Origin: Microcystis aeruginosa NIES-843
Lineage (GTDB): Bacteria > Cyanobacteriota > Cyanobacteriia > Cyanobacteriales > Microcystaceae
DNA: 32,000 nucleotides
Assembly (NCBI RefSeq): GCF_000010625.1
Contig: NC_010296.1
Span: 2,340,001 to 2,372,000, forward strand
Direction: 5' to 3'
Part shown: positions 5,902 to 26,132 of the stretch, in pieces
Position numbering within the stretch: position 1 is the first letter of the stretch
Layout: each line of letters begins with the position of its first letter
Translations under genes and position numbers: made by a program
The notes under the pieces: generated by a model
The model's input: the letters and a program-made list of their open reading frames with translations, nothing else
What the model was told of the DNA's origin: nothing
Database searches by the model: none

Positions 5902-8289
5902 ATGTTTGAATACTTTAACCAGAAAGCTATCAAAGCGGTGATGTTCGCCCAAGAGGAAGCCCGTCGTACCGGTCACAGTGTCGTCGGTACGGAGCATTTA
6001 CTGTTAGGATTGATAGGAGAAGCCACCGCCACCGCAGCCTTAATTCTCAAGGATTTAAAAGTTACCCTGCACGAAAGTCGCCGCCTGATTGAAGGAATGA
6101 CCGGCCGCGGCACCGGTTACAGTCCCGTTAATATCCCTTTTACCCCGAAAGCGAAAAAGATGTTCGAGCAAGCATTTCAGGAAGCTCGACAATTAGGGGA
6201 AAATGCGATCGCAACTGAACATCTATTACTCGCTATCACCAGCGATCCCGAATCCCTAGCCGCTAAAATTTTAATTATGCAGGGTGTTGATTTGATCAAA
6301 CTTCGCGGCCTTTTAATTAAAAATGCCGGGGAAAAAGTCGCTAGTGGTCGCTTCACGGCCAAGAGTGACTATGAAGACCAGAAAAATGCTCCCCAAGGCG
6401 GGATTTTAGCCCAATATGGTCGCAATTTAAACCAAGAGGTCAAAAATGGCAAAATTGACCCTGTAATCGGTAGAGAGCCAGAAATCGAGCGAGTTGTCCA
6501 AATTTTAGGCCGTCGTACCAAAAGTAACCCGATTTTACTGGGTGAGCCGGGGGTGGGCAAAACAGCGATCGCTGAAGGGTTAGCACAACGCATCCATAAT
6601 GGCGATATTCCCGAACTTTTGCAGGATAAACAGGTAATTGCCCTCGATATGGGGTCTTTACTGGCGGGAACCCGTTTTCGCGGCGATTTTGAGGAACGTT
6701 TAAAGGGTATCGTGGAGGAAGTTCGCAAATCGGGCAATATTATCCTGTTTATCGATGAAATTCACACTCTTGTGGGTGCTGGTAGCATGGGAGGAGCCAT
6801 GGATGCTTCTAACTTGCTTAAACCTGCTTTAGCTCGCGGGGAGTTACAGTGTTTAGGGGCAACAACTCTCGATGAGTATAAACGGCATATTGAGCGAGAT
6901 GCGGCTCTAGAAAGACGTTTTCAGCCAGTTATGGTGGGAGAACCAACTAAAGAGCAGGCGATCGAGATTTTACGCGGTTTAAAAGCCACCTACGAGGATT
7001 TCCATCAGGTAAAATACGATCAAAAAGCGATCGAAGCTGCCGTTAATCTATCCTCGCGCTATATCAATGATCGCTTTTTACCGGACAAAGCGATCGATCT
7101 TCTCGATGAAGCGGGATCCCGCACCCATCTACGCTATTCCCTGCAAAGTACAAGTCCTGCGGAGGTTAGGGAAGAATCACCCCTAATTAACCCCGAATCT
7201 TTAATTCCAGTGGTGGATGCGGAGGAAATCGCCCAAATTGTCGCCGCTTGGACAGGTATTCCCGTTACCCAATTAACTGAAACTGAGTCGGAATCGCTCT
7301 TAAATCTGGAATGTCAACTGCACGAGCGGATTATTGGCCAACAGGAGGCAGTGAATGCCGTTTCTCGTGCTATTCGTCGAGCGCGAGTAAATTTAAAGAA
7401 TCCTAACCGTCCGATTGCCTCGTTTATTTTTGCCGGTCCCACGGGAGTCGGTAAAACTGAATTAACGAAAGCCTTAGCTAAGTTGCTCTTTGGCTCGGAA
7501 TCCAGTATGATTCGCCTAGATATGTCGGAATTTATGGAATCCCACACGGTTTCTAAATTAATTGGTGCGCCTCCCGGATACATCGGTTACAATGAAGGCG
7601 GTCAGTTAACGGAAGCAGTGCGTCGTCAACCCTATAGAGTGGTCTTGTTTGACGAAATCGAGAAAGCACATCCCGATGTTTTTAATCTTCTCCTGCAACT
7701 GTTAGAAGATGGTCATTTGACCGATTCCCAAGGTCGTCGGGTGGACTTTAAGAATACCCTAATTATCATGACCTCGAATATTGGCTCAAAAGTCATCGAA
7801 AAAGGCGGTAATAGCTTAGGATTCGAGATTGCTGACGATTTTGCTCAATCGCGCTACCAACAGATTTCTAATCGGGTGACAGAGGAGTTAAAACAATATT
7901 TCCGTCCCGAATTTCTCAACCGTCTCGATGAAATCATTGTTTTCCGACAGTTAACTCGCGAAGAAGTTACCCAGATTGCCGATATTCTGATCGCGGATCT
8001 AGCCAAACAATTGACAGAAAAAGGCATTTCTGTGGAAGTTACCGCCGCTTTTAAGGATTTGGTCATCAATGAGGGTTATGATCCTAGCTACGGTGCGCGG
8101 CCTTTACGTCGTGCTTTAACTCGACGCTTAGAGGATAGTTTAGCGGTCGCGATGTTATCGGGAAAAGTCAATTCTGGAGACCATGCGATATTAGATGTAA
8201 CTGCTGAAGCTGTGGTGACAGTCTCTAGTCATCAGCGCTCTGAGCAAAGCGATATTCTCTCGCAATTACAGTTACAACCAGTGGGTTAA
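5902..8289 (+). CDS. ClpC-like class I AAA+ Clp/Hsp100 ATPase lacking the UVR/middle domain
   Basis: 795 aa with two Clp_N repeats. Walker A/B 1 are [13 protein letters not shown] / ILFIDEIH. Walker A/B 2 are [13 protein letters not shown] / [12 protein letters not shown] ClpP-docking-type 'LGF' loop is present (GGNSLGFEI). About 25 aa separate 'DEAGSRTHL' from '[12 protein letters not shown]', where canonical ClpC has a ~65-aa UVR coiled coil. Confidence 0.9.
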
Positions 8290-8745: not shown

Positions 8746-10272
8746 TTAATCCCAAGCTCTCCAGAGCCAAGCGAGTCCGGCAGTAATGATTAAAACTTTA
8801 GTTAACCAATCTCCCCAGCGCACATATAAAGTTCTCGTATCCCGTCGATAAATTGTTTCGCTATGGATTTGATATTTATCTAAATCCGATAGCCAAAGGT
8901 GATTACCGTGGGGATCGACAAAAGCAGAATAACCTGTATTGGTGGCCCGGGCCATCCATCGATCGGTTTCGATCGCTCGCATGGTATCCTGAGCATGGTG
9001 TTGAGCGGGCATGGCGTGGCTATAATGGGCGTTATTAGAAGCAGTAATAATAAATTCGCCTCCCCTAGCAGTTTGACGGCGAAAATGTTCGGAAAAAGCC
9101 GACTCGTAACAAATGCCCACAATTATTTGACCGAAAGGGCTGTCAATAATTTGATCAGGATTTCCCTGGATTAAATGCGCTTGCAAGGGAGAAAGGCGAT
9201 CAACAATTCCGCCCAAAATTTCCTGAAAAGGAACGTATTCGCCTAAAGGCACGAGAATTACTTTATCATACCGACTAATCACCTGTCCCTCGCCATCAAT
9301 GGTCAAGAGACTATTGTTATAACCCTTGTCCACCTTGCCAAATGCACCTAACCAGATCGGCGTTTTTTTGGCTAAAATTGCCGAATAAATCGAGCTATTA
9401 TTGACTAAGTTCTCCCAATAGTAGGGTAAGGCCGTTTCAGGAGTTAAGACGGCATCTACTCCTCGATCGGCGAGAATTTGATAACCAGAGGTGTAACCTT
9501 CGAGCGCCTTTTGAAATCCCAGGGGCGAAAGTTTAATCGTGTTGGCAATATTGCCCTGAATGACGCCAATTTTTATCCCTAAATCCCTTGACTTTTCGAT
9601 CGGTTTATGGTAAACATTCCATCCCCAGAGATGGAGGCTAAAACAAATGAGGAGGGGTAAAGAGAGAAAAGCGAGATTTTGCCGCGATTGACGGATTAGG
9701 AGCAAGCTTTCGGCGATTAAACCGTTAACTGCCACAATTGCCGCCGTTACCGTCGTAAAACCCGATAATTTGCCCAATTGCAGAATCAATAAATTATGGG
9801 GACTTTGACTATAAGCAAGGGTAGTCCACCAGAGAGGGGATTGACTCCAGAGAGATTCTAACCCACACCAGAGGGCAGTACCGATGAAAACCCGTAGGAG
9901 GGCATCCCGAAAAGATGACTGATTAACACTTTTGTTGACATAAAACATGACTAACGTCCAAGTTAGCACGATCGCCGTTCCCCAAAAAGTAATAAACAAC
10001 CAACAAAACAGGGCAATTAACAAACTCGCTAACCAGGGGACACCCATCCACGTCATCGGGTGAATTCCCGTGATCCAGAATAAAGCGAGGCCATGGTAGG
10101 CAAAACCCCAGCCAAAACCGTATAAAAGCGGTTTTTTTAGGGATTTTTCCGCTAATCTCACAACAATCCACAGGGGGACGAGAGAAATCCAAGCGAGTAA
10201 CCACCAAGAAACCGGTGCTACTGTTAACCCCATCCCCACACCGGCCAAAATTGCCCAGAGAAAACGCACCAT
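8746..10272 (-). CDS. lnt: Apolipoprotein N-acyltransferase
   Basis: 508 aa with a polytopic N-terminus plus a C-terminal CN-hydrolase domain. Lnt triad contexts are present: 'LTPETAL', 'YDKVILVPLGEYVP', 'GICYESAF'. Confidence 0.9.
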   Translation of the reverse strand: MVRFLWAILAGVGMGLTVAPVSWWLLAWISLVPLWIVVRLAEKSLKKPLLYGFGWGFAYHGLALFWITGIHPMTWMGVPWLASLLIALFCWLFITFWGTAIVLTWTLVMFYVNKSVNQSSFRDALLRVFIGTALWCGLESLWSQSPLWWTTLAYSQSPHNLLILQLGKLSGFTTVTAAIVAVNGLIAESLLLIRQSRQNLAFLSLPLLICFSLHLWGWNVYHKPIEKSRDLGIKIGVIQGNIANTIKLSPLGFQKALEGYTSGYQILADRGVDAVLTPETALPYYWENLVNNSSIYSAILAKKTPIWLGAFGKVDKGYNNSLLTIDGEGQVISRYDKVILVPLGEYVPFQEILGGIVDRLSPLQAHLIQGNPDQIIDSPFGQIIVGICYESAFSEHFRRQTARGGEFIITASNNAHYSHAMPAQHHAQDTMRAIETDRWMARATNTGYSAFVDPHGNHLWLSDLDKYQIHSETIYRRDTRTLYVRWGDWLTKVLIITAGLAWLWRAWD

Positions 10273-10496: not shown

Positions 10497-11267
10497 GTGA
10501 TTGAATACATGGATAATTTTAACCCCAAATTAACGGCTCTGGCTCTTGTCTTGAATGTCGAGGAAAATCTCGAAGATATTTTTCGGAAAATAGCTAGTAT
10601 GAGCGCTCATCAATTGCGAGCGCGGCACTGTTCAATTATGTTAAGCTCTCCACAGGAATTAAAAGGGGAAATTACCGATTATCTAGAAGTTTTTGCCCAT
10701 TATGATGATCTATCACCCTTGGCTGATCAAGAAATAATTAAACTCGATCAAGTTATTGCCGACAGTGTAGCGGCCACAGGAAAACCTTTACTAATTAAGG
10801 ATATCACTCGATCGCCATTTTCCAGTGCAGCCCCTTATCCCAAAAGAGCAAATAATAATAGTTTTATATCCGTACCGATTATCCTAAACGAGCAGGTAAT
10901 CGGAGTAATTAATCTCAGTTTTCCCCTAGACAAAAAACATTTTGAACCATTAGATTTAGAAATCTTGCAGTTATTCGCTCAACAGGCTGCCCAATCCCTG
11001 CAAATTTTTCATTTGCAAGGGATGTTAAAATCTCGTTTTGTGGCGATGGCAGTGACTAGGGAAATAGCAGAAATTCAGTCCGAACATTTGATCGCTGTCC
11101 CTCCTTATCCCCCAAAATTAGCCAAAATTGTCGCTAAGGCTTTTTTTAAAGAATTGACTCAGGCCGGTTTTGGAACCCATCAAGTTATTGAGATTGCTAA
11201 TGAGGTTTTGAATTTACTACAAAAGACCCTTAATAAACATAAAAATCGTCTGGAAGCAAAAGATTGA
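10497..11267 (+). CDS. GAF domain-containing protein (alternative ATG start at 10509)
   Basis: GAF-like core 'HCSIMLSS...GKPLLIKDI...FISVPIILNEQVIGVINLSF' followed by a helical C-terminal tail. Confidence 0.7.
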   Translation: MIEYMDNFNPKLTALALVLNVEENLEDIFRKIASMSAHQLRARHCSIMLSSPQELKGEITDYLEVFAHYDDLSPLADQEIIKLDQVIADSVAATGKPLLIKDITRSPFSSAAPYPKRANNNSFISVPIILNEQVIGVINLSFPLDKKHFEPLDLEILQLFAQQAAQSLQIFHLQGMLKSRFVAMAVTREIAEIQSEHLIAVPPYPPKLAKIVAKAFFKELTQAGFGTHQVIEIANEVLNLLQKTLNKHKNRLEAKD

Positions 11268-16566: not shown

Positions 16567-17783
16567 GAACTCTTGCAAATTAATTATATGTTATAATGAT
16601 GGGTTAACTAATTTTCCCCAAAAAATTAGTTAATCAGTACATTCGTCCTGAATGAAAACTTGAAGTTTAACTTTTAACTCAAAACTCTTTAGAGCTGCTT
16701 TAATTTGGTTATCAAAACCTCTTTATTTAAGCGGCACAAACTATCTCAATTTTTATAATTGAGAATAAATTCTCCTTGACTTGATTAATCTTTAGGCAAC
16801 TTTTAAGAAGCTGCTATACCTATCCCTAACTCACAGTTATAAATAGCCGCCAACAAGTTAACTCTTAAACTATATCTTCGACGACGATTCCGATATTTAC
16901 AGGATAAGATTTTAAAGATTTTGAGTTTCCTATTTATATGTTCAATGATAATCCTTTCTTTAGCTAAAGCCTTGTTATACTCTTTTTCTAACTCTGTTAA
17001 TTTTCTATTTTTCGATTTCTTTTTCGGTGTATAACTATTACTATGGTATGCAGCTATTCCCTGATAACCACTGTCTTCTATGCTGGTAGTTAAAGGATGA
17101 AAACGAACTCGACTTTTTTTAAATAAACTAAAATCATGACCTCTACCTTTCCCACAGAAGACACAGATAATTTCCTCTGTATTTTGATCAGCTACTAATT
17201 GGGATTTTAAAGTATGATAACCTCTTTTACCCGAAAAAAAATCTTTCTGTTTCTTTTGGGGGCGTTCAATGGGAGTTTCCGTTACATCCATTACCGTTAT
17301 GACCGGTATCTCTGCTTGATTGAGTAAAGCTTTTTTTCCTTTTAAACGGAAGTTTCCCGATTGTAAAAGCATTTTTTCCGTCTTATTTACAATCCGACAT
17401 ATAGTTGATTCTGATAGTTCCCAGCTTGTACCAATGTGAAAATATGTTCTATATTCTCGCCAATATTCTAACGTTACTAAAACTTGTTCTTCTATAGATA
17501 GTTTAGGTTTCGGTCCCCTTTTAGATGGTGAATTAGAGTCGGCTTCAACACTTTTTACTGATTCTACCATCTTTCTATATGTTTGTTTGTACACACCGAA
17601 ACGGCGTTTGAATTGTTCATCTGATAAGTTTTGATAATCCATAATTTTGCTAATAAACATAGCAAAATTATAGATGATTTCCTGACCTAAGATCACATTT
17701 TATTCTTTTTTCCACTTCAATCTAAGAATTGAGAAAAAAGCAAAACCTTATATTATACCATAAAAAAATTATGCAAGAGGTCT
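16567..17783 (-). mobile_element. IS5-family-type insertion sequence (DDE_Tnp_4/Harbinger-like transposase), apparently intact
   Basis: Imperfect terminal inverted repeats are GAACTCTTGCAAATTAATT (left) and AGACCTCTTGCATAATTTT (right, reverse complement). Flanking direct repeat AATA lies at 16563-16566 and 17784-17787. Excision restores an open reading frame. Confidence 0.8.
16803..17642 (-). CDS. IS transposase (HTH + DDE_Tnp_4-type); the longer ORF extends to 17696
   Basis: 'MDYQNLSDEQFKRRFGV', 'KRGPKPKLSIEEQVLVTLEYWREYRTYFHIG', and the DDE contexts 'VMDVTE', 'EDSGYQG' and 'ERIIIEHINRKLKIFKIL'. Confidence 0.85.
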   Translation of the reverse strand: MDYQNLSDEQFKRRFGVYKQTYRKMVESVKSVEADSNSPSKRGPKPKLSIEEQVLVTLEYWREYRTYFHIGTSWELSESTICRIVNKTEKMLLQSGNFRLKGKKALLNQAEIPVITVMDVTETPIERPQKKQKDFFSGKRGYHTLKSQLVADQNTEEIICVFCGKGRGHDFSLFKKSRVRFHPLTTSIEDSGYQGIAAYHSNSYTPKKKSKNRKLTELEKEYNKALAKERIIIEHINRKLKIFKILSCKYRNRRRRYSLRVNLLAAIYNCELGIGIAAS

Positions 17784-17845: not shown

Positions 17846-19291
17846 TTATCCTCTGCTAGAAACTACGTCAATGGTACAGGTTTCCAGACGAGAAAAAAGA
17901 ATTATCCCACCCCCCACACCCCAGACAAGGGTGGGAAGATGTCCGGAAGGTGCTTTGAGAGAGAAAGTAATTTGATCGTAGTATAACCACTTGTTATTAA
18001 CTCGCCAACCGACTTTTGACCCAAAAGCGTTCCATTTTTGTTGGTCATAATTGCCGCTTCCTCCCAAACTTTCATAGATTCTTTTCTGAACAGATATACC
18101 GAATTTTCCCTGACTATATTTTAACCAGAGTTGATTGATAGTGGCTAAATCTTCACAGGGAAAGTTATCTATGTCTTCTATCTTAAGATATTTTTCTTTA
18201 GTTCGATCGGCAACTTTTAAGAAGAGATTAGCCGTTTCTTGATCTGCCTCTTGCCATTTTTCTTGCGCTAAGAAATCCCGTAGGTTAGTGTAATCAATTT
18301 CCTTGGCACTTTTGAGGTTAATTTCCCCCCTGGTGGCGGCTGGAAAAACTGGCAAAACCGTTTCTTGAATTGTATTCTGTGATCGGGGTTTTGGCGGAAT
18401 CACTACGGCTAATTTTACTGCTAACTCTTGTAGGAATTCCCCGGCTGATTGATAACGTTTTTTGGTGCCAAATTCAATTAATTTATCTAAAATTTTACCT
18501 AATTCAACACTAACAGGATTATTAATCAGGTGCTGTCTCCATACCCATTCATGTTCACTCACATCGAATAATTCAAAGGGAGATATTCCCGTTAATAAAT
18601 AGATACAAGTGACTCCCAAACTATATAAATCACTGCTATTAATCGCTTTGCCATTGCTTTGTTCTGGGGCGATATATCCCGCCGAACCGATCACTGTTCC
18701 TGTCAGGGAAAGGTTAGCAATGGTCATGAATTTAGAGGCACCGAAATCAACTAAAATTATTTTATTATCGCTGCGTCTCCTAATTATATTAGCTGGTTTA
18801 ATATCCCGATGAATGACTCTTTTAGCATGGATAAAATCAAGAATTGGCAAAATTTCTAATAAAAGATGTTTGATCTTTTCCTCATTGAAAACTCCCTCGC
18901 TTTGTAATTCTTGTTCTAGATTTTCTCCCTCAATATATTCTTGAACAAGATATTGTCGCCCATCATTGCTGGTAAAATAGGCATAGAGGGAGGGAATTTG
19001 TGGGTGTTGACCGAGATTATCTAAACTAATCGCTTCTTCTTTAAATAATTCCGCCGCTTTCTTGAGAGCATTACTGCCTTGAGCGCTAGGAAAAAATTGT
19101 TTAATCACACAATAAGGTTTAGAAGGTTTATCCTCATCAATTGCTTGAAAAGTTTTACCGAAACCTCCTTGACCAATTAATTTTATAGCACGATAACGAT
19201 CTTTTAGTAATAATTGAAAGCGACATTTTTGACAGAATTTATCTGTAGGATCATTGTTATATAGACAATCGGGATTAAGACATAAACTCAT
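17846..19291 (-). CDS. Ser/Thr protein kinase with N-terminal zinc ribbon and C-terminal GUN4-like domain
   Basis: Zn ribbon 'CLNPDCLYNNDPTDKFCQKC'. Kinase motifs 'GQGGFGKTF', 'HRDIKPANI', 'DFG' and 'APE'. The C-terminal 'EKWQEADQET..IDNFPCEDLATINQLWLKYSQGKFG..QKRIY' is GUN4-like. Confidence 0.85.
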   Translation of the reverse strand: MSLCLNPDCLYNNDPTDKFCQKCRFQLLLKDRYRAIKLIGQGGFGKTFQAIDEDKPSKPYCVIKQFFPSAQGSNALKKAAELFKEEAISLDNLGQHPQIPSLYAYFTSNDGRQYLVQEYIEGENLEQELQSEGVFNEEKIKHLLLEILPILDFIHAKRVIHRDIKPANIIRRRSDNKIILVDFGASKFMTIANLSLTGTVIGSAGYIAPEQSNGKAINSSDLYSLGVTCIYLLTGISPFELFDVSEHEWVWRQHLINNPVSVELGKILDKLIEFGTKKRYQSAGEFLQELAVKLAVVIPPKPRSQNTIQETVLPVFPAATRGEINLKSAKEIDYTNLRDFLAQEKWQEADQETANLFLKVADRTKEKYLKIEDIDNFPCEDLATINQLWLKYSQGKFGISVQKRIYESLGGSGNYDQQKWNAFGSKVGWRVNNKWLYYDQITFSLKAPSGHLPTLVWGVGGGIILFSRLETCTIDVVSSRG

Positions 19292-24131: not shown

Positions 24132-24370
24132 TTGTACTAATTTAAGTTGTTGAACAAATTTATAGACAATTTACGCTATTTTGTCCAACTTGTGTTGAGT
24201 CTGGTGACGCTCAGAGGGGATTCTGTCATTGTTGAGCTTGCCTCTCTAGTTTCTAGTTGATTTATCCCCCCATGTCCAAGAGAACCTAATCTCTGGCTTT
24301 TTTGACTAATTGATCAATCTTCACATGATCAATCGTATAATCAAAAAAACTATAACTGCTTGATTATATC

Positions 24371-25555
24371 ATGAAAATTGTTTCTATTAAAATAAAAAAC
24401 TATCGTATGTTTAAAAACATACACATAAGAGATATTCCTCCTTTTTGTGTGATTATTGGAGCTAACGGCACGGGAAAATCTACTCTATTTGATATTTTTG
24501 GGTTTCTGCGAGATGCCCTTAAAAACAACATTCGCCAAGCTTTACAAATTCGCGGCGGTTATAGAGAAATTATCACTAGAGGTCAAGAACAGGAAGATAT
24601 TGAAATCGAGCTGCAATTTCCCATGAAAATCTTAGATACAGAACGTCTGGTTACTTATCAAATCATAATTGGACAAAACAATAATCGCCCCGTTATCAAA
24701 CGCGAAATACTTCGCTATAAACGGGGTGAACACGGTAAACCTTTTCATTTTTTAGATTTTCAACTTGGTCAAGGATATGCTATCACCAACGAAGAAGATT
24801 TTAGTAAACCGGATAAAGAACTCGATCGAGAAGAACAACAGCTAGAATCTAACGATATACTAGCAATCAAAGGATTAGGACAATTTCAACGTTTTAAAGC
24901 CGCTACAGCCTTTCGTTCTCTGATTGAAAATTGGCACGTTTCTGACTTTCATATTAGCGAAGCTAGAGGAAGTAAAGAAATATCTTATGCTGAACACTTA
25001 TCCCCCACTGGCGACAATATAGCTACAGTTGCTCAATATATTTATCAACAATATCCCAAAATTTTTCAGCAAATTCTCGAAAAAATGAAACAACGAGTTC
25101 CGGGTATTTCCTCTGTGGAAGCCAAAGAAACCGAAGACGGTCGCTTGATTTTACGTTTTCAAGATCAGGCCTTTAAAGACCCTTTTATTGATCGCTATGT
25201 TTCTGACGGGACTATGAAAATGTTCGCTTATTTAATATTACTATTCGATCCCAATCCTCATCCCCTACTCTGTGTCGAAGAACCAGAAAACCAACTTTAT
25301 CCTACTTTATTAAAAGAACTAGCCGAAGAATTCGCCCACTATAGCGATCAGGGGGGTCAGGTATTTGTTTCTAGCCACTCCCCCGATTTTATCAATGCGG
25401 TTCCACTAGCTAGTATTTTCTGGCTAATTAAATCCCAAGGTATCACCCAAATCCATAGGGCTACCGATAGCGAAATCCTCAAAAACTTAGTAGCGGCAGG
25501 CGATTTACCCGGCTATCTTTGGAATCAAGGCTGGTTTAAAGGAGTAGAACCCTAA
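24371..25555 (+). CDS. ABC-type (AAA_21-like) ATPase, SMC/OLD-ATPase-like
   Basis: N-terminal 'IKIKNYRMFKN..' with Walker A 'GANGTGKST' (24458-24484). Also present are the signature-like 'VSDGTMKMFAYL', Walker B 'LLCVEEPENQLYP' and H-loop 'VFVSSHSPDF'. Confidence 0.8.
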   Translation: MKIVSIKIKNYRMFKNIHIRDIPPFCVIIGANGTGKSTLFDIFGFLRDALKNNIRQALQIRGGYREIITRGQEQEDIEIELQFPMKILDTERLVTYQIIIGQNNNRPVIKREILRYKRGEHGKPFHFLDFQLGQGYAITNEEDFSKPDKELDREEQQLESNDILAIKGLGQFQRFKAATAFRSLIENWHVSDFHISEARGSKEISYAEHLSPTGDNIATVAQYIYQQYPKIFQQILEKMKQRVPGISSVEAKETEDGRLILRFQDQAFKDPFIDRYVSDGTMKMFAYLILLFDPNPHPLLCVEEPENQLYPTLLKELAEEFAHYSDQGGQVFVSSHSPDFINAVPLASIFWLIKSQGITQIHRATDSEILKNLVAAGDLPGYLWNQGWFKGVEP

Positions 25556-26073
25556 TGAACTATGATATCGTATTTTTGCTAGAAGAGTCATCTATAAAAA
25601 ATGTGTTAGAAGAACTTTTGCCTAAGCTTATTCCCCCAGAAATCAGCTATAAATGTATTAGTCATCAAGGTAAACAAGACCTAGCCAAATCTATTCCTAG
25701 AAAACTCAAAGCTTTCAAGAACTCTAGTCCCAATACCAAATTTATTATTGTTCACGATCAGGATTCCCACGACTGTCAAAAACTCAAAAAAGACCTAGGG
25801 GAAATTTGTCAAAATGCCAGTGATGCTCAAGTCTTAATTCGGATTATTTGTCATGAATTAGAATCTTGGTTTCTGGGAGATTTAGCAGCGGTGGCCAAGG
25901 CGTATAATTTAAATAGTCTCGGCCAAAAACAAAATAAAAGTAAATACAGAGAACCAGACCAGCTTAACTCGGCTAAACAAGAATTAACAAAGCTAGTGAA
26001 AGAGTATTATGCAGGAACCCACTCTAAACAGATTGCCCCCCATCTTTTCCTAACTGAAAATAAATCCCTTTGA
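25555..26073 (+). CDS. DUF4276-type protein (Toprim-like acidic motifs)
   Basis: The start overlaps the ATPase stop (TAATG). 'IVFLLEESS', 'FIIVHDQDSHD' and 'CHELESWFLGD' fit the pattern I recall for DUF4276, and the E...DxD layout is Toprim-like. The family call is from memory and is unverified. Confidence 0.65.
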   Translation: MNYDIVFLLEESSIKNVLEELLPKLIPPEISYKCISHQGKQDLAKSIPRKLKAFKNSSPNTKFIIVHDQDSHDCQKLKKDLGEICQNASDAQVLIRIICHELESWFLGDLAAVAKAYNLNSLGQKQNKSKYREPDQLNSAKQELTKLVKEYYAGTHSKQIAPHLFLTENKSL

Positions 26074-26132
26074 CCACTGCTGTTATTGTATGTCTTGAAT
26101 CCGCAAAGGTCTGTATAATTTAGCCAATAAAA

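Follow-up and report, generated by a model that had tools for sequence, protein, structure and literature searches.

An apparently damaged Microcystis copy of the candidate anti-phage system HEC-01, with an intact ATPase gene and a 3'-truncated DUF4276 gene

[quoted passage not shown] It was discovered embedded in Hma systems, it is catalogued in PADLOC-DB v2, and a representative tested in E. coli MG1655 deltaRM conferred no defence (Payne et al. 2024, bioRxiv 10.1101/2024.01.29.577857). A cold-seep HEC-01 that was cloned alone protected E. coli B against at least one of the phages T7, T5, and T4 (Nat Commun 2026). The partners of DUF4276 proteins have been placed in the tree of AAA15/21 defence ATPases (PMC11464382). 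DUF4276 and RloB have been placed jointly in the Toprim superfamily, with E and DxD (NAR 2025), and Mad4 has been named as a DUF4276 homologue (PMC12065111). Already published are the ATPase–DUF4276 pairing, its interpretation in terms of TOPRIM, and its grouping with OLD, Gabija, and PARIS.

The window, i.e., the whole stretch of 32,000 nucleotides analyzed here, comes from Microcystis aeruginosa NIES-843 (contig NC_010296.1, positions 2,340,001 to 2,372,000). An initial annotation had proposed two of its genes as a candidate defence module of an ATPase and a DUF4276 protein. The classification stood, as PADLOC assigned the pair to HEC-01, but the newness did not. With a PADLOC entry, a published Toprim assignment, and phage assays of representatives already behind it, the pair is minor as a discovery. 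New here is that the DUF4276 gene of NIES-843 is a deletion allele. The features of the pair are:

24371..25555, + strand: ABC-type ATPase gene, 394 aa, intact, HEC-01 ATPase component (ORF list, Pfam, PADLOC)
25555..26073, + strand: DUF4276 (Toprim-like) putative nuclease gene, HEC-01 partner, 172-aa C-terminally truncated allele
24132..24370: intergenic spacer of 239 bp that separates the ATPase gene from the divergent FAD-oxidoreductase gene, presumed to hold the promoter of the pair
25539..25557, + strand: translational-coupling element, with Shine-Dalgarno AAGGAG at 25539-25544 and the TAATG stop/start at 25553-25557

Both ORFs and their overlapping junction were found as first described. 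The junction reads cccTAATGaac, in which the TAA (25553-25555) and the ATG (25555-25557) overlap by 1 nt on the same strand, the adjacency and co-direction of a HEC-01 pair. The Shine-Dalgarno sequence lies inside the 3' end of the ATPase gene. A TAATG or TGATG (or ATGA) junction was kept in most of the ATPase–DUF4276 loci compared. Promoter-like matches in the 239-bp region were at chance level (10 found vs 11.3 expected); we therefore name no particular promoter for the pair. The terminator scan was likewise at chance level.

In the hmmscan analysis, AAA_21 and DUF4276 were both above the Pfam cut-off, as had been anticipated. The ATPase matched AAA_21 (E 3.8e-28), AAA_15 (E 1.3e-24), SMC_N (3.9e-08), and AAA_23. 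The 172-aa protein, which is identical to BAG02437.1 (B0JID9_MICAN), matched DUF4276 (PF14103) with an E-value of 4.2e-13 and 50.4 bits against a gathering cut-off of 30.2, over profile positions 2-172 of 192. The domain matches of both proteins are far above chance, at the level of Pfam profiles. PADLOC analysis of the window, another proposed check, gave matches to HEC-01 models almost end to end for both proteins. The ATPase matched PDLC04144 at 4.8e-201 (1-394 of the 395-position profile) and PDLC04182 at 2.6e-125, and the DUF4276 protein matched PDLC04143 at 4.3e-60 and PDLC04202 at 1.1e-38. Judged by these profiles, the pair is a Microcystis copy of the already catalogued candidate anti-phage system HEC-01. 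In PADLOC, the two best-matching HEC-01 models have swapped A/B labels.

The ATPase carries four motifs:

24458..24484, + strand: Walker A / P-loop GANGTGKST, aa 30-38 (K36)
25199..25234, + strand: ABC signature-equivalent VSDGTMKMFAYL, aa 277-288 (S278-D-G-T281)
25265..25288, + strand: Walker B, OLD-type variant LLCVEEPE, aa 299-306 (E303, E304)
25370..25381, + strand: H-loop SSHS, aa 334-337 (H336)

A first homologue search with the ATPase returned Microcystis proteins only, with at least 98% identity, and the copy at the related locus L009 is 98% identical. Conservation was assessed with 26 orthologues of 54-82% identity. Invariant residues were G30, A31, N32, G33, G35, and K36 in Walker A; S278, D279, G280, and T281 in the signature-like motif; E303, E304, and P305 in Walker B; and H336, S337, and P338 in and next to the H-loop. 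All four motifs are intact and occur in the order of an ABC ATPase of the SMC/Rad50/OLD-like clade. The motif positions first given for both proteins were correct on re-check.

The phmmer search of the ATPase against the PDB gave no match, and its family profile matched PDB entries in the P-loop region only. A structure modeled from an alignment of 79-98% identity was of low confidence (pLDDT 61.6, pTM 0.66). Foldseek analysis of this low-confidence model against the PDB gave 210 matches at E ≤ 1e-3, led by PtuA, Rad50, SMC, GajA, and OLD, with E-values of about 1e-10 for these heads. An ABC head fold is predicted by the low-confidence model. Because the model is poor, the sub-family is given no finer than "ABC, PtuA/Rad50/GajA/OLD-like".

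The DUF4276 protein carries four conserved acidic residues:

25582..25584, + strand: codon E10, invariant Glu right after beta1 (Toprim general acid/base position)
25756..25764, + strand: codons D68-Q69-D70, DxD putative metal-binding motif at the end of beta3
25861..25863, + strand: codon E103, fourth invariant acidic position (in HELESW), opening the helix that follows beta4

They lie in the motifs LLEESS (aa 8-13, E10), VHDQDSHD (aa 66-73, D68 and D70), and HELESW (aa 100-105, E103). In an alignment of 113 DUF4276 sequences, E10, D68, and E103 were invariant and D70 was at least 90% conserved. The full-length DUF4276 model (pLDDT 95.8) has beta1 at 5-9, beta3 at 62-68, and beta4 at 92-98, followed by a helix at 103-107. 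In this predicted model, a Glu after beta1 and a DxD after beta3 sit in a beta-alpha-beta-alpha-beta-alpha-beta core, a comparison that covered the positions of motifs and strands along the sequence. The E...DxD...E set that had been read as an acidic set in Toprim order was thus confirmed by the alignment and the model. All four acidic residues are still present in the 172-aa protein.

Remote Toprim/OLD matches had also been expected. They were absent from Pfam, from the PDB profile search, and from Foldseek analysis against the PDB. The Pfam hmmscan of the DUF4276 protein gave no Toprim, DUF4435, or RloB match at E ≤ 0.1. The PDB profile search with the 113-sequence alignment gave no Toprim and no meaningful match; a DUF4297 restriction endonuclease ranked first, with E 0.1. 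Foldseek analysis of the high-confidence DUF4276 model against the PDB found nothing significant, with no Toprim among the best 50 matches, so the fold class was not confirmed by Foldseek. What appeared were weak hhalign alignments and an RloB-like neighbour. The hhalign probabilities were only 2.4-8.7%. One alignment, against P2 Old/Ts OLD/GajA, had both E10 and the DxD in register, with a probability of 8.7% and a pairwise E of 0.0039. In these weak alignments, E10 was paired with the Glu of "LLVEG" in all three proteins, and D68-Q69-D70 fell on the DCD of P2 Old and the DND of GajA. In the viral library, the DUF4276 model came closest to an RloB-like protein (TM 0.54/0.50).

Comparison with related loci revealed the lesion in the DUF4276 gene:

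26068..26069: junction of a clean 392-bp deletion, with the last 25 DUF4276 codons and about 315 bp of intergenic DNA gone

Positions 26068 and 26069 of the window, adjacent here, correspond to positions 10514 and 10907 of L009 and to positions 6317 and 6710 of L010. The junction joins AATAAATCCC to TTTGACCACTGC. The lost DUF4276 segment was not encoded in any downstream frame. Homologues are nearly all 186-198 aa long, and other Microcystis alleles are nearly all 196 aa long, indicating that the 172-aa ORF is a 3'-truncated allele. In the full-length model, the lost residues 172-196 include the entire terminal helix (172-189). They also include S173 (100% conserved in the DUF4276 family) and F174 (96%), which are part of an N-x-S-x-S-F motif. 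The initial annotation was right that the 172-aa ORF exists, but it had missed the loss of this conserved C-terminal helix. Of the two HEC-01 components, the ATPase is complete and the DUF4276 protein lacks residues 172-196.

By sequence comparison, the NIES-843 pair appears to be a HEC-01 member by descent, but a damaged one. Since the deletion removes a conserved C-terminal helix, the copy may not work; a reduced or lost activity is most likely. Purifying selection acts on both genes (omega about 0.25). The dN/dS of the truncated allele was 0.15-0.40, not above that of full-length alleles (median 0.24) in a comparison of low power, so a loss of function is not visible in the substitution patterns. 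PADLOC-style HMM matches would score the truncated copy as complete; automated defence calls should therefore check the completeness of components.

The NIES-843 allele is one of several. At least four independent inactivating lesions were found in about 12 Microcystis lineages, and about eight were found in 65 other species. Natural 3' truncations of the DUF4276 gene occur in the Microcystis NIES-843/NIES-102 lineage, Prochloron, and several Pseudanabaena, with the catalytic residues and the ATPase intact. In some strains the ATPase gene is disrupted (loci L023 and L029). The natural truncated alleles flag the C-terminal S-x-S-F helix as worth mutating. A long shot is that either the ATPase docks or restrains the nuclease through this helix, the truncations, which show no visible relaxation of selection, being a repeatedly selected "disarmed" or re-wired state and not simple decay, or HEC-01 is a PrrC-like guard of type I R-M in cyanobacteria. 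If true, either reading would give a first mechanistic handle on a widespread, uncharacterized ATPase–nuclease module.

The Microcystis pair was at the same locus in every species representative examined that had the upstream flank, and the locus was flanked by aroB-like, FAD-oxidoreductase, and cobW genes. The pair had been described as lying in AT-rich DNA, and the GC contents agreed with this (38.1% for the ATPase gene and 36.0% for the DUF4276 gene vs 42.3% for the window). The low-GC tract also takes in the two genes that follow, and GC contents just as low occur in other genes of the window. The accessory-islet reading was not supported: the synteny across Microcystis species indicates that the pair is not a recent islet. 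The description of the pair as lying between core genes held for its housekeeping flanks but not for a direct abutment to the COG0523 block, as an orphan gene intervenes:

26133..27128, - strand: 331-aa orphan gene, between the pair and the COG0523 block

The orphan is convergent with the DUF4276 gene, with 59 bp now left between them. It was rejected as a third component, as no family model matched it and its position beside the pair is conserved in Microcystis alone. The only other PADLOC match near the pair was to a broad PD-T4-6/mad6-like kinase model, 5 kb away. The housekeeping neighbours and the Microcystis-wide synteny indicate that there is no local defence island in the window.

The shared locus and the purifying selection on both genes would also fit a housekeeping pair for DNA repair or maintenance, analogous to SbcCD or to a RecF-type ABC ATPase with a nuclease, and the ATPase model is as close to Rad50/SMC heads as to defence ATPases. 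We regard such a role as very improbable. The distribution of the pair is patchy, with plasmid and R-M-embedded copies, and inactivating lesions are frequent. The HMMs that the two proteins match are those of defence candidates, and neither protein matched a repair family.

The two genes are kept as neighbours, a point that had been put up for checking. The ATPase gene was directly upstream of the DUF4276 gene in 78/78 assessable loci from distinct species, and the distance matrices of the two proteins were correlated (r = 0.90, Mantel 0 of 2000). Co-occurrence is strict, and the two proteins co-evolve. HEC-01 is common in cyanobacteria that form blooms or serve as models, among them Microcystis, Planktothrix, Anabaena/Nostoc, and Moorena, and it is on the Synechocystis 6803 plasmid pSYSM. 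Overall the pair is patchy, being found in Cyanobacteria, Methylococcales, Parabeggiatoa, Aeromonas, and Persicobacter.

Enrichment next to defence genes had been proposed as a second check, and the outcome was mixed. Uma2 and HsdR made up 15/123 immediate neighbours vs 3/143 distant genes, with a Fisher p of 0.001 that overstates independence because the R-M association is phylogenetically clustered. HsdR was immediately downstream in 5 species, while about 10 had a Uma2 of 72-81% identity immediately upstream. But most of the 65 loci had housekeeping neighbours. In Anabaena, the pair is inside a type I R-M operon, between hsdM and hsdR. On pSYSM, it has a cysteine desulfurase on one side and a phosphorothioation-associated methyltransferase on the other, and it is accompanied by HNH, RelE/HigA, and MNT/HEPN-like genes. 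In Methylococcales, the genes on either side of the pair encode a release factor and a class II tRNA synthetase.

These neighbourhoods might suggest that HEC-01 guards DNA-modification systems, as PrrC and RloA/RloB do. In that case, a latent effector would be freed when a phage inhibits the neighbouring R-M or phosphorothioation system, and the Microcystis copy would be an orphan. The Anabaena operon, the Uma2 and HsdR neighbours, and the phosphorothioation-associated cluster of pSYSM are in line with this. So are the discovery of HEC-01 inside Hma systems, the RloB-like ("restriction-linked ORF") protein as the closest structural neighbour, and the same domain pair in MAD3/MAD4 of the methylation-associated MADS. 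A guard is unlikely, however. Housekeeping genes flank the pair at most of the 65 loci, the Methylococcales pair adjoins release-factor and tRNA-synthetase genes, the R-M association is clustered as noted above, and the cold-seep HEC-01 was reported to be protective in E. coli on its own.

A tblastn search of 50,697 phage records gave no match, and a phage-borne origin was rejected on this ground. Plasmid matches were limited to 7 records, of which the Synechocystis and Pseudanabaena plasmids are non-mobilizable. The Planktothrix pair adjoins the TA genes HicAB and HigB. A selfish, addiction or TA-like module could account for some of these observations. Here the ATPase would neutralize a toxic DUF4276 nuclease, and the pair would persist through post-segregational killing or the stabilization of a region or plasmid. 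The annotation of AAA_21 reads "putative AbiEii toxin, type IV TA system", the pair sits on non-mobilizable plasmids, and TA genes are among its neighbours in Planktothrix and on pSYSM. One E. coli test showed no defence, and the nuclease gene is repeatedly disrupted beside an intact ATPase gene, as expected if the nuclease is toxic. Even so, we give this explanation little chance. The ATPase gene is also disrupted in L023 and L029, a lesion that cells should not survive if the ATPase were an essential antitoxin; one phage assay was positive; and the pair was absent from the phage records and scarce among plasmids.

The best explanation, which we consider probable, is that the pair is a chromosomal NIES-843 copy of HEC-01 with a phage-triggered, ATPase-licensed DUF4276 nuclease, and that this copy is crippled by the 392-bp deletion. 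The operon would encode an ABC-type ATPase, with an SMC/Rad50/OLD-like head and an EEPE Walker B, and a translationally coupled DUF4276 protein. In the predicted core of the latter, E10, D68-x-D70, and E103 would make up a metal site of the Toprim type. An oligomer of the ATPase may sense a phage-derived cue, by analogy with OLD, Gabija, PARIS, and Septu. It would then license the DUF4276 nuclease, and nucleic acid would be cut and the infection stopped. The NIES-843 copy would be among several, in Microcystis and in other cyanobacteria, that were damaged independently of one another. To our knowledge, no DUF4276 protein has been shown to have nuclease activity, a complex, or a trigger.

Of the solved structures of known systems, those of Septu/retron PtuA proteins (9n69, 9n6c, 8eea, and 8sux, E 6e-11 to 9e-10) come nearest to the low-confidence ATPase model. 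PtuA also gave the best PDB sequence match (1.5e-06), which covered only ATPase residues 1-47 to 1-93. The similarity is restricted to the ABC core, and the partner of PtuA is the HNH nuclease PtuB, not DUF4276.

The OLD and GajA proteins share OLD-type ABC motifs with the ATPase, including the "(I/V)EEPE" Walker B of Ts OLD and GajA. The signature-equivalent motif of P2 Old and GajA (GHGTQR / SGDGRRK) comes before Walker B, as it does here, and OLD (6p74) and GajA are among the structural matches of the low-confidence ATPase model. The weak hhalign alignment matches the E and DxD of DUF4276 to the Toprim Glu and DxD in the correct register, but there is no significant profile or Foldseek similarity between DUF4276 and the OLD Toprim domain. 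Membership in the OLD family (class 1) was ruled out, as a stop codon splits the pair into two ORFs rather than one polypeptide. Gabija was ruled out because no GajB UvrD-like helicase adjoins the pair; GajA models match the ATPase in two partial stretches only (3e-16).

PARIS resembles the pair in having a split ABC ATPase and a small Toprim-type effector in one operon. AriA models match the ATPase at 1.1e-28, and AriA and the DUF4276-partnered ATPases are in the same AAA15/21 tree (PMC11464382). But no AriA structure was among the best 50 Foldseek matches of the low-confidence ATPase model, and the AriA sequence match is limited to the P-loop region (E 0.0024). The trigger (Ocr) and the tRNA target are features of PARIS, not established for HEC-01. 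PARIS membership was ruled out, as the partner has no AriB/DUF4435 match in PADLOC or Pfam.

RloA/RloB likewise combines an AAA_21-type ATPase with a small Toprim-like partner, inside type I R-M operons, and relatives of the present pair are directly upstream of hsdR. The RloB-like neighbour covers the full DUF4276 model with a probability of 0.99, but with a Foldseek E of 0.03. RloB is a separate Pfam family, which the DUF4276 protein did not match.

MADS includes an AAA_21-type ATPase and a DUF4276 protein in MAD3–MAD4, and PADLOC gave matches to mad3 (3.2e-25) and mad4 (2.1e-3). However, the NCBIfam equivalog cut-offs were missed (122.4 bits vs 420 for MAD3 and 15 vs 160 for MAD4). No methyltransferase or other mad gene was found within 10 kb of the pair, besides the broad kinase match. 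MADS membership was ruled out by the scores below the equivalog cut-offs and by the housekeeping neighbours.

From HEC-01 as described, the NIES-843 copy differs in lying outside an Hma or other defence system and in having a DUF4276 gene without its last 25 codons. It shares with HEC-01 the same two components, in the same order and of the same family.

The initial annotation had placed an ABC-type ATPase gene and a DUF4276 gene next to each other, with overlapping stop and start codons. Both ORFs were found exactly as placed.

24371..25555, + strand: ABC-type ATPase ORF, 394 aa
25555..26073, + strand: DUF4276 ORF, 172 aa

At the junction (cccTAATGaac), the TAA stop (25553-25555) and the ATG start (25555-25557) had one base in common, and a Shine-Dalgarno sequence, AAGGAG, was located within the ATPase coding sequence, 10 nt 5' of the ATG. 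All motifs were at the residues that the annotation had assigned, and its numbering of K36, D68, and D70 was right. The Pfam search returned the two families it had expected. The ATPase matched AAA_21 (3.8e-28), AAA_15 (1.3e-24), and SMC_N, and its partner matched DUF4276 (4.2e-13; 50.4 bits vs a cut-off of 30.2). The ATPase–DUF4276 gene pair was confirmed.

Among orthologues at 54-82% identity, the Walker A, the S-D-G-T signature equivalent, the Walker B, and the H-loop of the ATPase were invariant. The Walker B was of the OLD-type 'VEEPE' form. By sequence, only the N-terminal P-loop region aligned to solved proteins (PtuA, retron Eco8 OLD, Ts OLD, GajA, Rad50, SMC, and AriA). The structural model of the ATPase was poor (pLDDT 61.6, pTM 0.66) because the alignment was shallow. 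It nevertheless matched 210 PDB chains at E <= 1e-3, with heads of retron I-A and Septu PtuA, Rad50, GajA, OLD, and SMC at the top. These matches confirmed the modeled protein as a member of the ABC class; the poor model left the sub-family unseparated.

Both proteins matched HEC-01 models of PADLOC-DB nearly end to end. The ATPase matched PDLC04144 (4.8e-201; 1-394 of 395) and PDLC04182 (2.6e-125), and the DUF4276 partner matched PDLC04143 (4.3e-60) and PDLC04202 (1.1e-38). The window pair is already catalogued as HEC-01 and is therefore already known. HEC-01 was defined as an ABC ATPase plus a TOPRIM-like partner embedded in Hma systems, with a metal-binding site conserved in alignment to B. 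pseudomallei OLD, and the representative tested in that study did not defend E. coli (Payne et al., bioRxiv 10.1101/2024.01.29.577857). In E. coli B, a HEC-01 representative from a cold seep was reported to be protective against one or more of the phages T7, T5, and T4 (Nat Commun 2026). The Menshen paper placed DUF4276 and RloB in the Toprim superfamily and described Mad4 of MADS as a DUF4276 homologue (NAR 2025, PMC12065111), and the AAA15/21 defence-ATPase tree takes in DUF4276 partners (PARIS paper 2024, PMC11464382). The initial proposal of a split ATPase/nuclease defence module agreed in essence with this published view of the family, and it is not new. As a separate observation, the DUF4276 protein was matched by PDLC04143 ('HEC-01A') and the ATPase by PDLC04144 ('HEC-01B'). 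The remaining HEC-01 models use A for the ATPase and B for DUF4276, so these two labels look swapped.

The sole new point is that NIES-843 carries a C-terminally deleted nuclease allele, which is probably impaired. The 172-aa protein had identical counterparts in Microcystis aeruginosa NIES-843 (BAG02437.1 / B0JID9_MICAN) and among the proteins of AP019314.1. All listed homologues were 185-205 aa long, nearly all of them 186-198 aa, and 196 aa was the length of almost every other named Microcystis allele. In the alignment, the window protein ended with '...TENKS-L*', where relatives went on with 'RSFQxFIxGI...'. The missing segment was not encoded in any of the three downstream frames. DNA comparison with two related loci, L009 and L010, equated window 26068/26069 with 10514/10907 and 6317/6710, respectively. 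The window has thus cleanly lost 392 bp, and the sequence at the junction is AATAAATCCC/TTTGACCACTGC. The deletion took the final 25 DUF4276 codons and ~315 bp of intergenic DNA, and the new stop codon is only 59 bp from that of the convergent 331-aa gene.

The full-length DUF4276 allele was modeled using AlphaFold2 with 113 diverse sequences in the alignment, and the model was very confident (pLDDT 95.8, pTM 0.90). It contained strands beta1 (5-9), beta2 (32-36), beta3 (62-68), and beta4 (92-98), with a helix after each strand. The terminal helix comprised residues 172-189; therefore, the deletion takes out exactly this modeled helix. The motif at the helix start (N169 84%, S171 99%, S173 100%, F174 96%, F177 71%, and G180 62%) was conserved to the same degree as the catalytic residues. 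Among the 150 best 50%-identity representatives, ~92% had a match that extended at least to query residue 175. The 172-aa protein kept E10, D68, D70, and E103, and the adjacent ATPase gene was intact, sharing 98% identity with its L009 counterpart. In a low-power test, dN/dS between truncated and full-length alleles was 0.15-0.40 and showed no rise over the full-length alleles compared with each other (median 0.24). Three substitutions were private to the window lineage (K56N, K/Q145T, and S165F). From sequence and model, the effector of the window copy, the DUF4276 nuclease, is probably impaired, with the four retained acidic residues and the dN/dS values as caveats.

Lesions were also observed in other genomes. 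Three Microcystis loci had independent ATPase lesions: in L023, the 5' end and promoter were swapped for unrelated sequence (8817-8852); in L027, a 1-nt deletion in a poly-C run caused a frameshift (~8880), which may be an assembly or long-read error; in L029, codon 230 changed from AAA to TAA (K230 stop). Outside Microcystis, DUF4276 was 3'-deleted in L076, L082, and L092, frameshifted in L064, L071, L083, and L088, and interrupted in L060. Accessory or defence genes typically show such turnover.

The ATPase gene was directly upstream of DUF4276 in 78 of 80 loci from distinct species, and the remaining two were cut by contig ends. A TAATG/TGATG (or ATGA) junction was conserved at most examined loci. 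Pairwise distances of the two proteins were correlated (r = 0.90; Mantel 0/2000), with DUF4276 evolving faster than the ATPase (mean distance 0.37 vs 0.24). The hosts were chiefly Cyanobacteria, plus Methylococcales and Parabeggiatoa. No copy of the pair was detected among 50,697 phage records, and seven plasmid records contained it, including Synechocystis 6803 pSYSM and one Pseudanabaena plasmid.

The initial annotation had taken the AT-rich DNA of the pair to be consistent with an accessory islet. The GC content of the pair was indeed 4-6 points under the window mean, but the low-GC tract ran on through the 331-aa gene (30.6%) and cobW (35.9%). Its position, on the downstream side of aroB-like and FAD-oxidoreductase genes, was also shared by those Microcystis species representatives for which the upstream flank was retrieved. 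Judged from these sequence comparisons, the pair is a long-resident Microcystis locus and no strain-specific insertion.

The 331-aa ORF (26133-27128, - strand; GC3 22.9%), convergent with the pair, encodes hydrophobic stretches and had no match in Pfam, PADLOC, or NCBIfam. It adjoined the pair only in Microcystis (93% nucleotide identity to L009/L010) and not in other genera, and was therefore rejected as a part of the system. Collinearity with L009 and L010 ended at 27166/27167. Beyond this breakpoint, they had Pkinase and DnaJ genes, and the window and M. viridis NIES-102 (L001) had a cobW/amidohydrolase block. In NIES-102, an IS605-family TnpB insertion (OrfB_IS605 / Cas12f1-like_TNB, 370 aa; L001 15371-16881, ~ window 29740), absent from the window, lay between the amidohydrolase gene and a 152-aa gene. 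L009 and L001, collinear in other respects, lacked a 1.2-kb AT-rich segment of the window (16567-17783, 33% GC), which encodes a 297-aa DDE transposase (ORF 16803..17696, - strand; DDE_Tnp_4 4.9e-22, HTH_Tnp_4) and is therefore a strain-specific IS insertion. PADLOC matches elsewhere in the window were only generic ones, to ClpB and exonuclease, and one of a kinase 5 kb upstream to a PD-T4-6 model. This Ser/Thr kinase (17846-19291, - strand; 481 aa) also has a GUN4 domain and matched PD-T4-6 PDLC04062 over its full length (5.1e-175) as well as mad6 (3.4e-40). Planktothrix (L016/L017) had a similar kinase-GUN4 gene at a distance of 7 kb from the pair. As the PD-T4-6 models are broad kinase models, a defence role of the window kinase is putative.

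In other genera, the contexts of the pair were as follows.

Anabaena: between hsdM and hsdR, with Fic, PIN, and Uma2 genes
Synechocystis pSYSM: between cysteine desulfurase and phosphorothioation-associated methyltransferase genes, close to HNH, RelE/HigA, and MNT/HEPN-like genes
Planktothrix: near HicAB and HigB
Moorena: amid glycosyl- and sulfotransferase genes
Geminocystis and Methylococcales: amid housekeeping genes

Immediate neighbours (n = 123) included 10 Uma2 and 5 type I HsdR; among genes 6-10 kb off (n = 143), there were 3 Uma2 and no listed HsdR family. Fisher's test gave p = 0.001 for this enrichment, with independence overstated because the neighbours are 72-81% identical syntenic copies. 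Second neighbours held nothing notable except four AAA_21 proteins.

A Uma2 putative restriction endonuclease gene, 72-81% identical, was directly upstream of the pair in ~10 cyanobacterial species (L013, L030, L033, L034, L038, L039, L043, L047, L077, and L088), several with hsdR directly downstream, which suggests that a conserved Uma2-ATPase-DUF4276 cassette is carried inside type I R-M operons. In five Methylococcales loci (L084, L089, L090, L091, and L098), a peptide-chain release factor gene (PCRF/RF-1) flanked the pair on one side, and in four of them (not L089) a class II tRNA-synthetase (lysS-like) gene was on the other. There, the pair is an insertion between housekeeping genes that are usually adjacent partners. 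On pSYSM of Synechocystis sp. PCC 6803 (25994-27735), the full-length pair SGL_RS00110/00115 lay in a dense island that, besides the desulfurase and methyltransferase genes, contained DUF4007, LAGLIDADG and HNH endonuclease, MNT/DUF86, and RelE/HigA genes. A full-length pair in this model cyanobacterium is a tractable system for testing HEC-01.

As a defence module, the pair would work like OLD, Gabija, PARIS, and Septu: on sensing a phage cue, the oligomeric ATPase would license the putative metal-dependent DUF4276 nuclease. The coupled junction may lead to co-translation and so to the right ATPase:DUF4276 stoichiometry. Among the alternatives, a PrrC/RloAB-like guard of modification systems is unlikely, an addiction module is quite improbable, and a repair function is very improbable.

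The DUF4276 partner had no match to AriB, DUF4435, or Toprim_Old in PADLOC-DB and Pfam; therefore, PARIS, OLD, and Gabija were rejected as identities. PARIS has an AriB/DUF4435 partner, whereas the window pair has a DUF4276 partner. MADS has a DUF4276 homologue, Mad4, as the window pair does, but the window proteins scored far under the NCBIfam cut-offs (MAD3, 122 vs 420 bits; MAD4, 15 vs 160 bits), so the pair is not MADS. With OLD, the window ATPase has the 'VEEPE' form of the Walker B in common.
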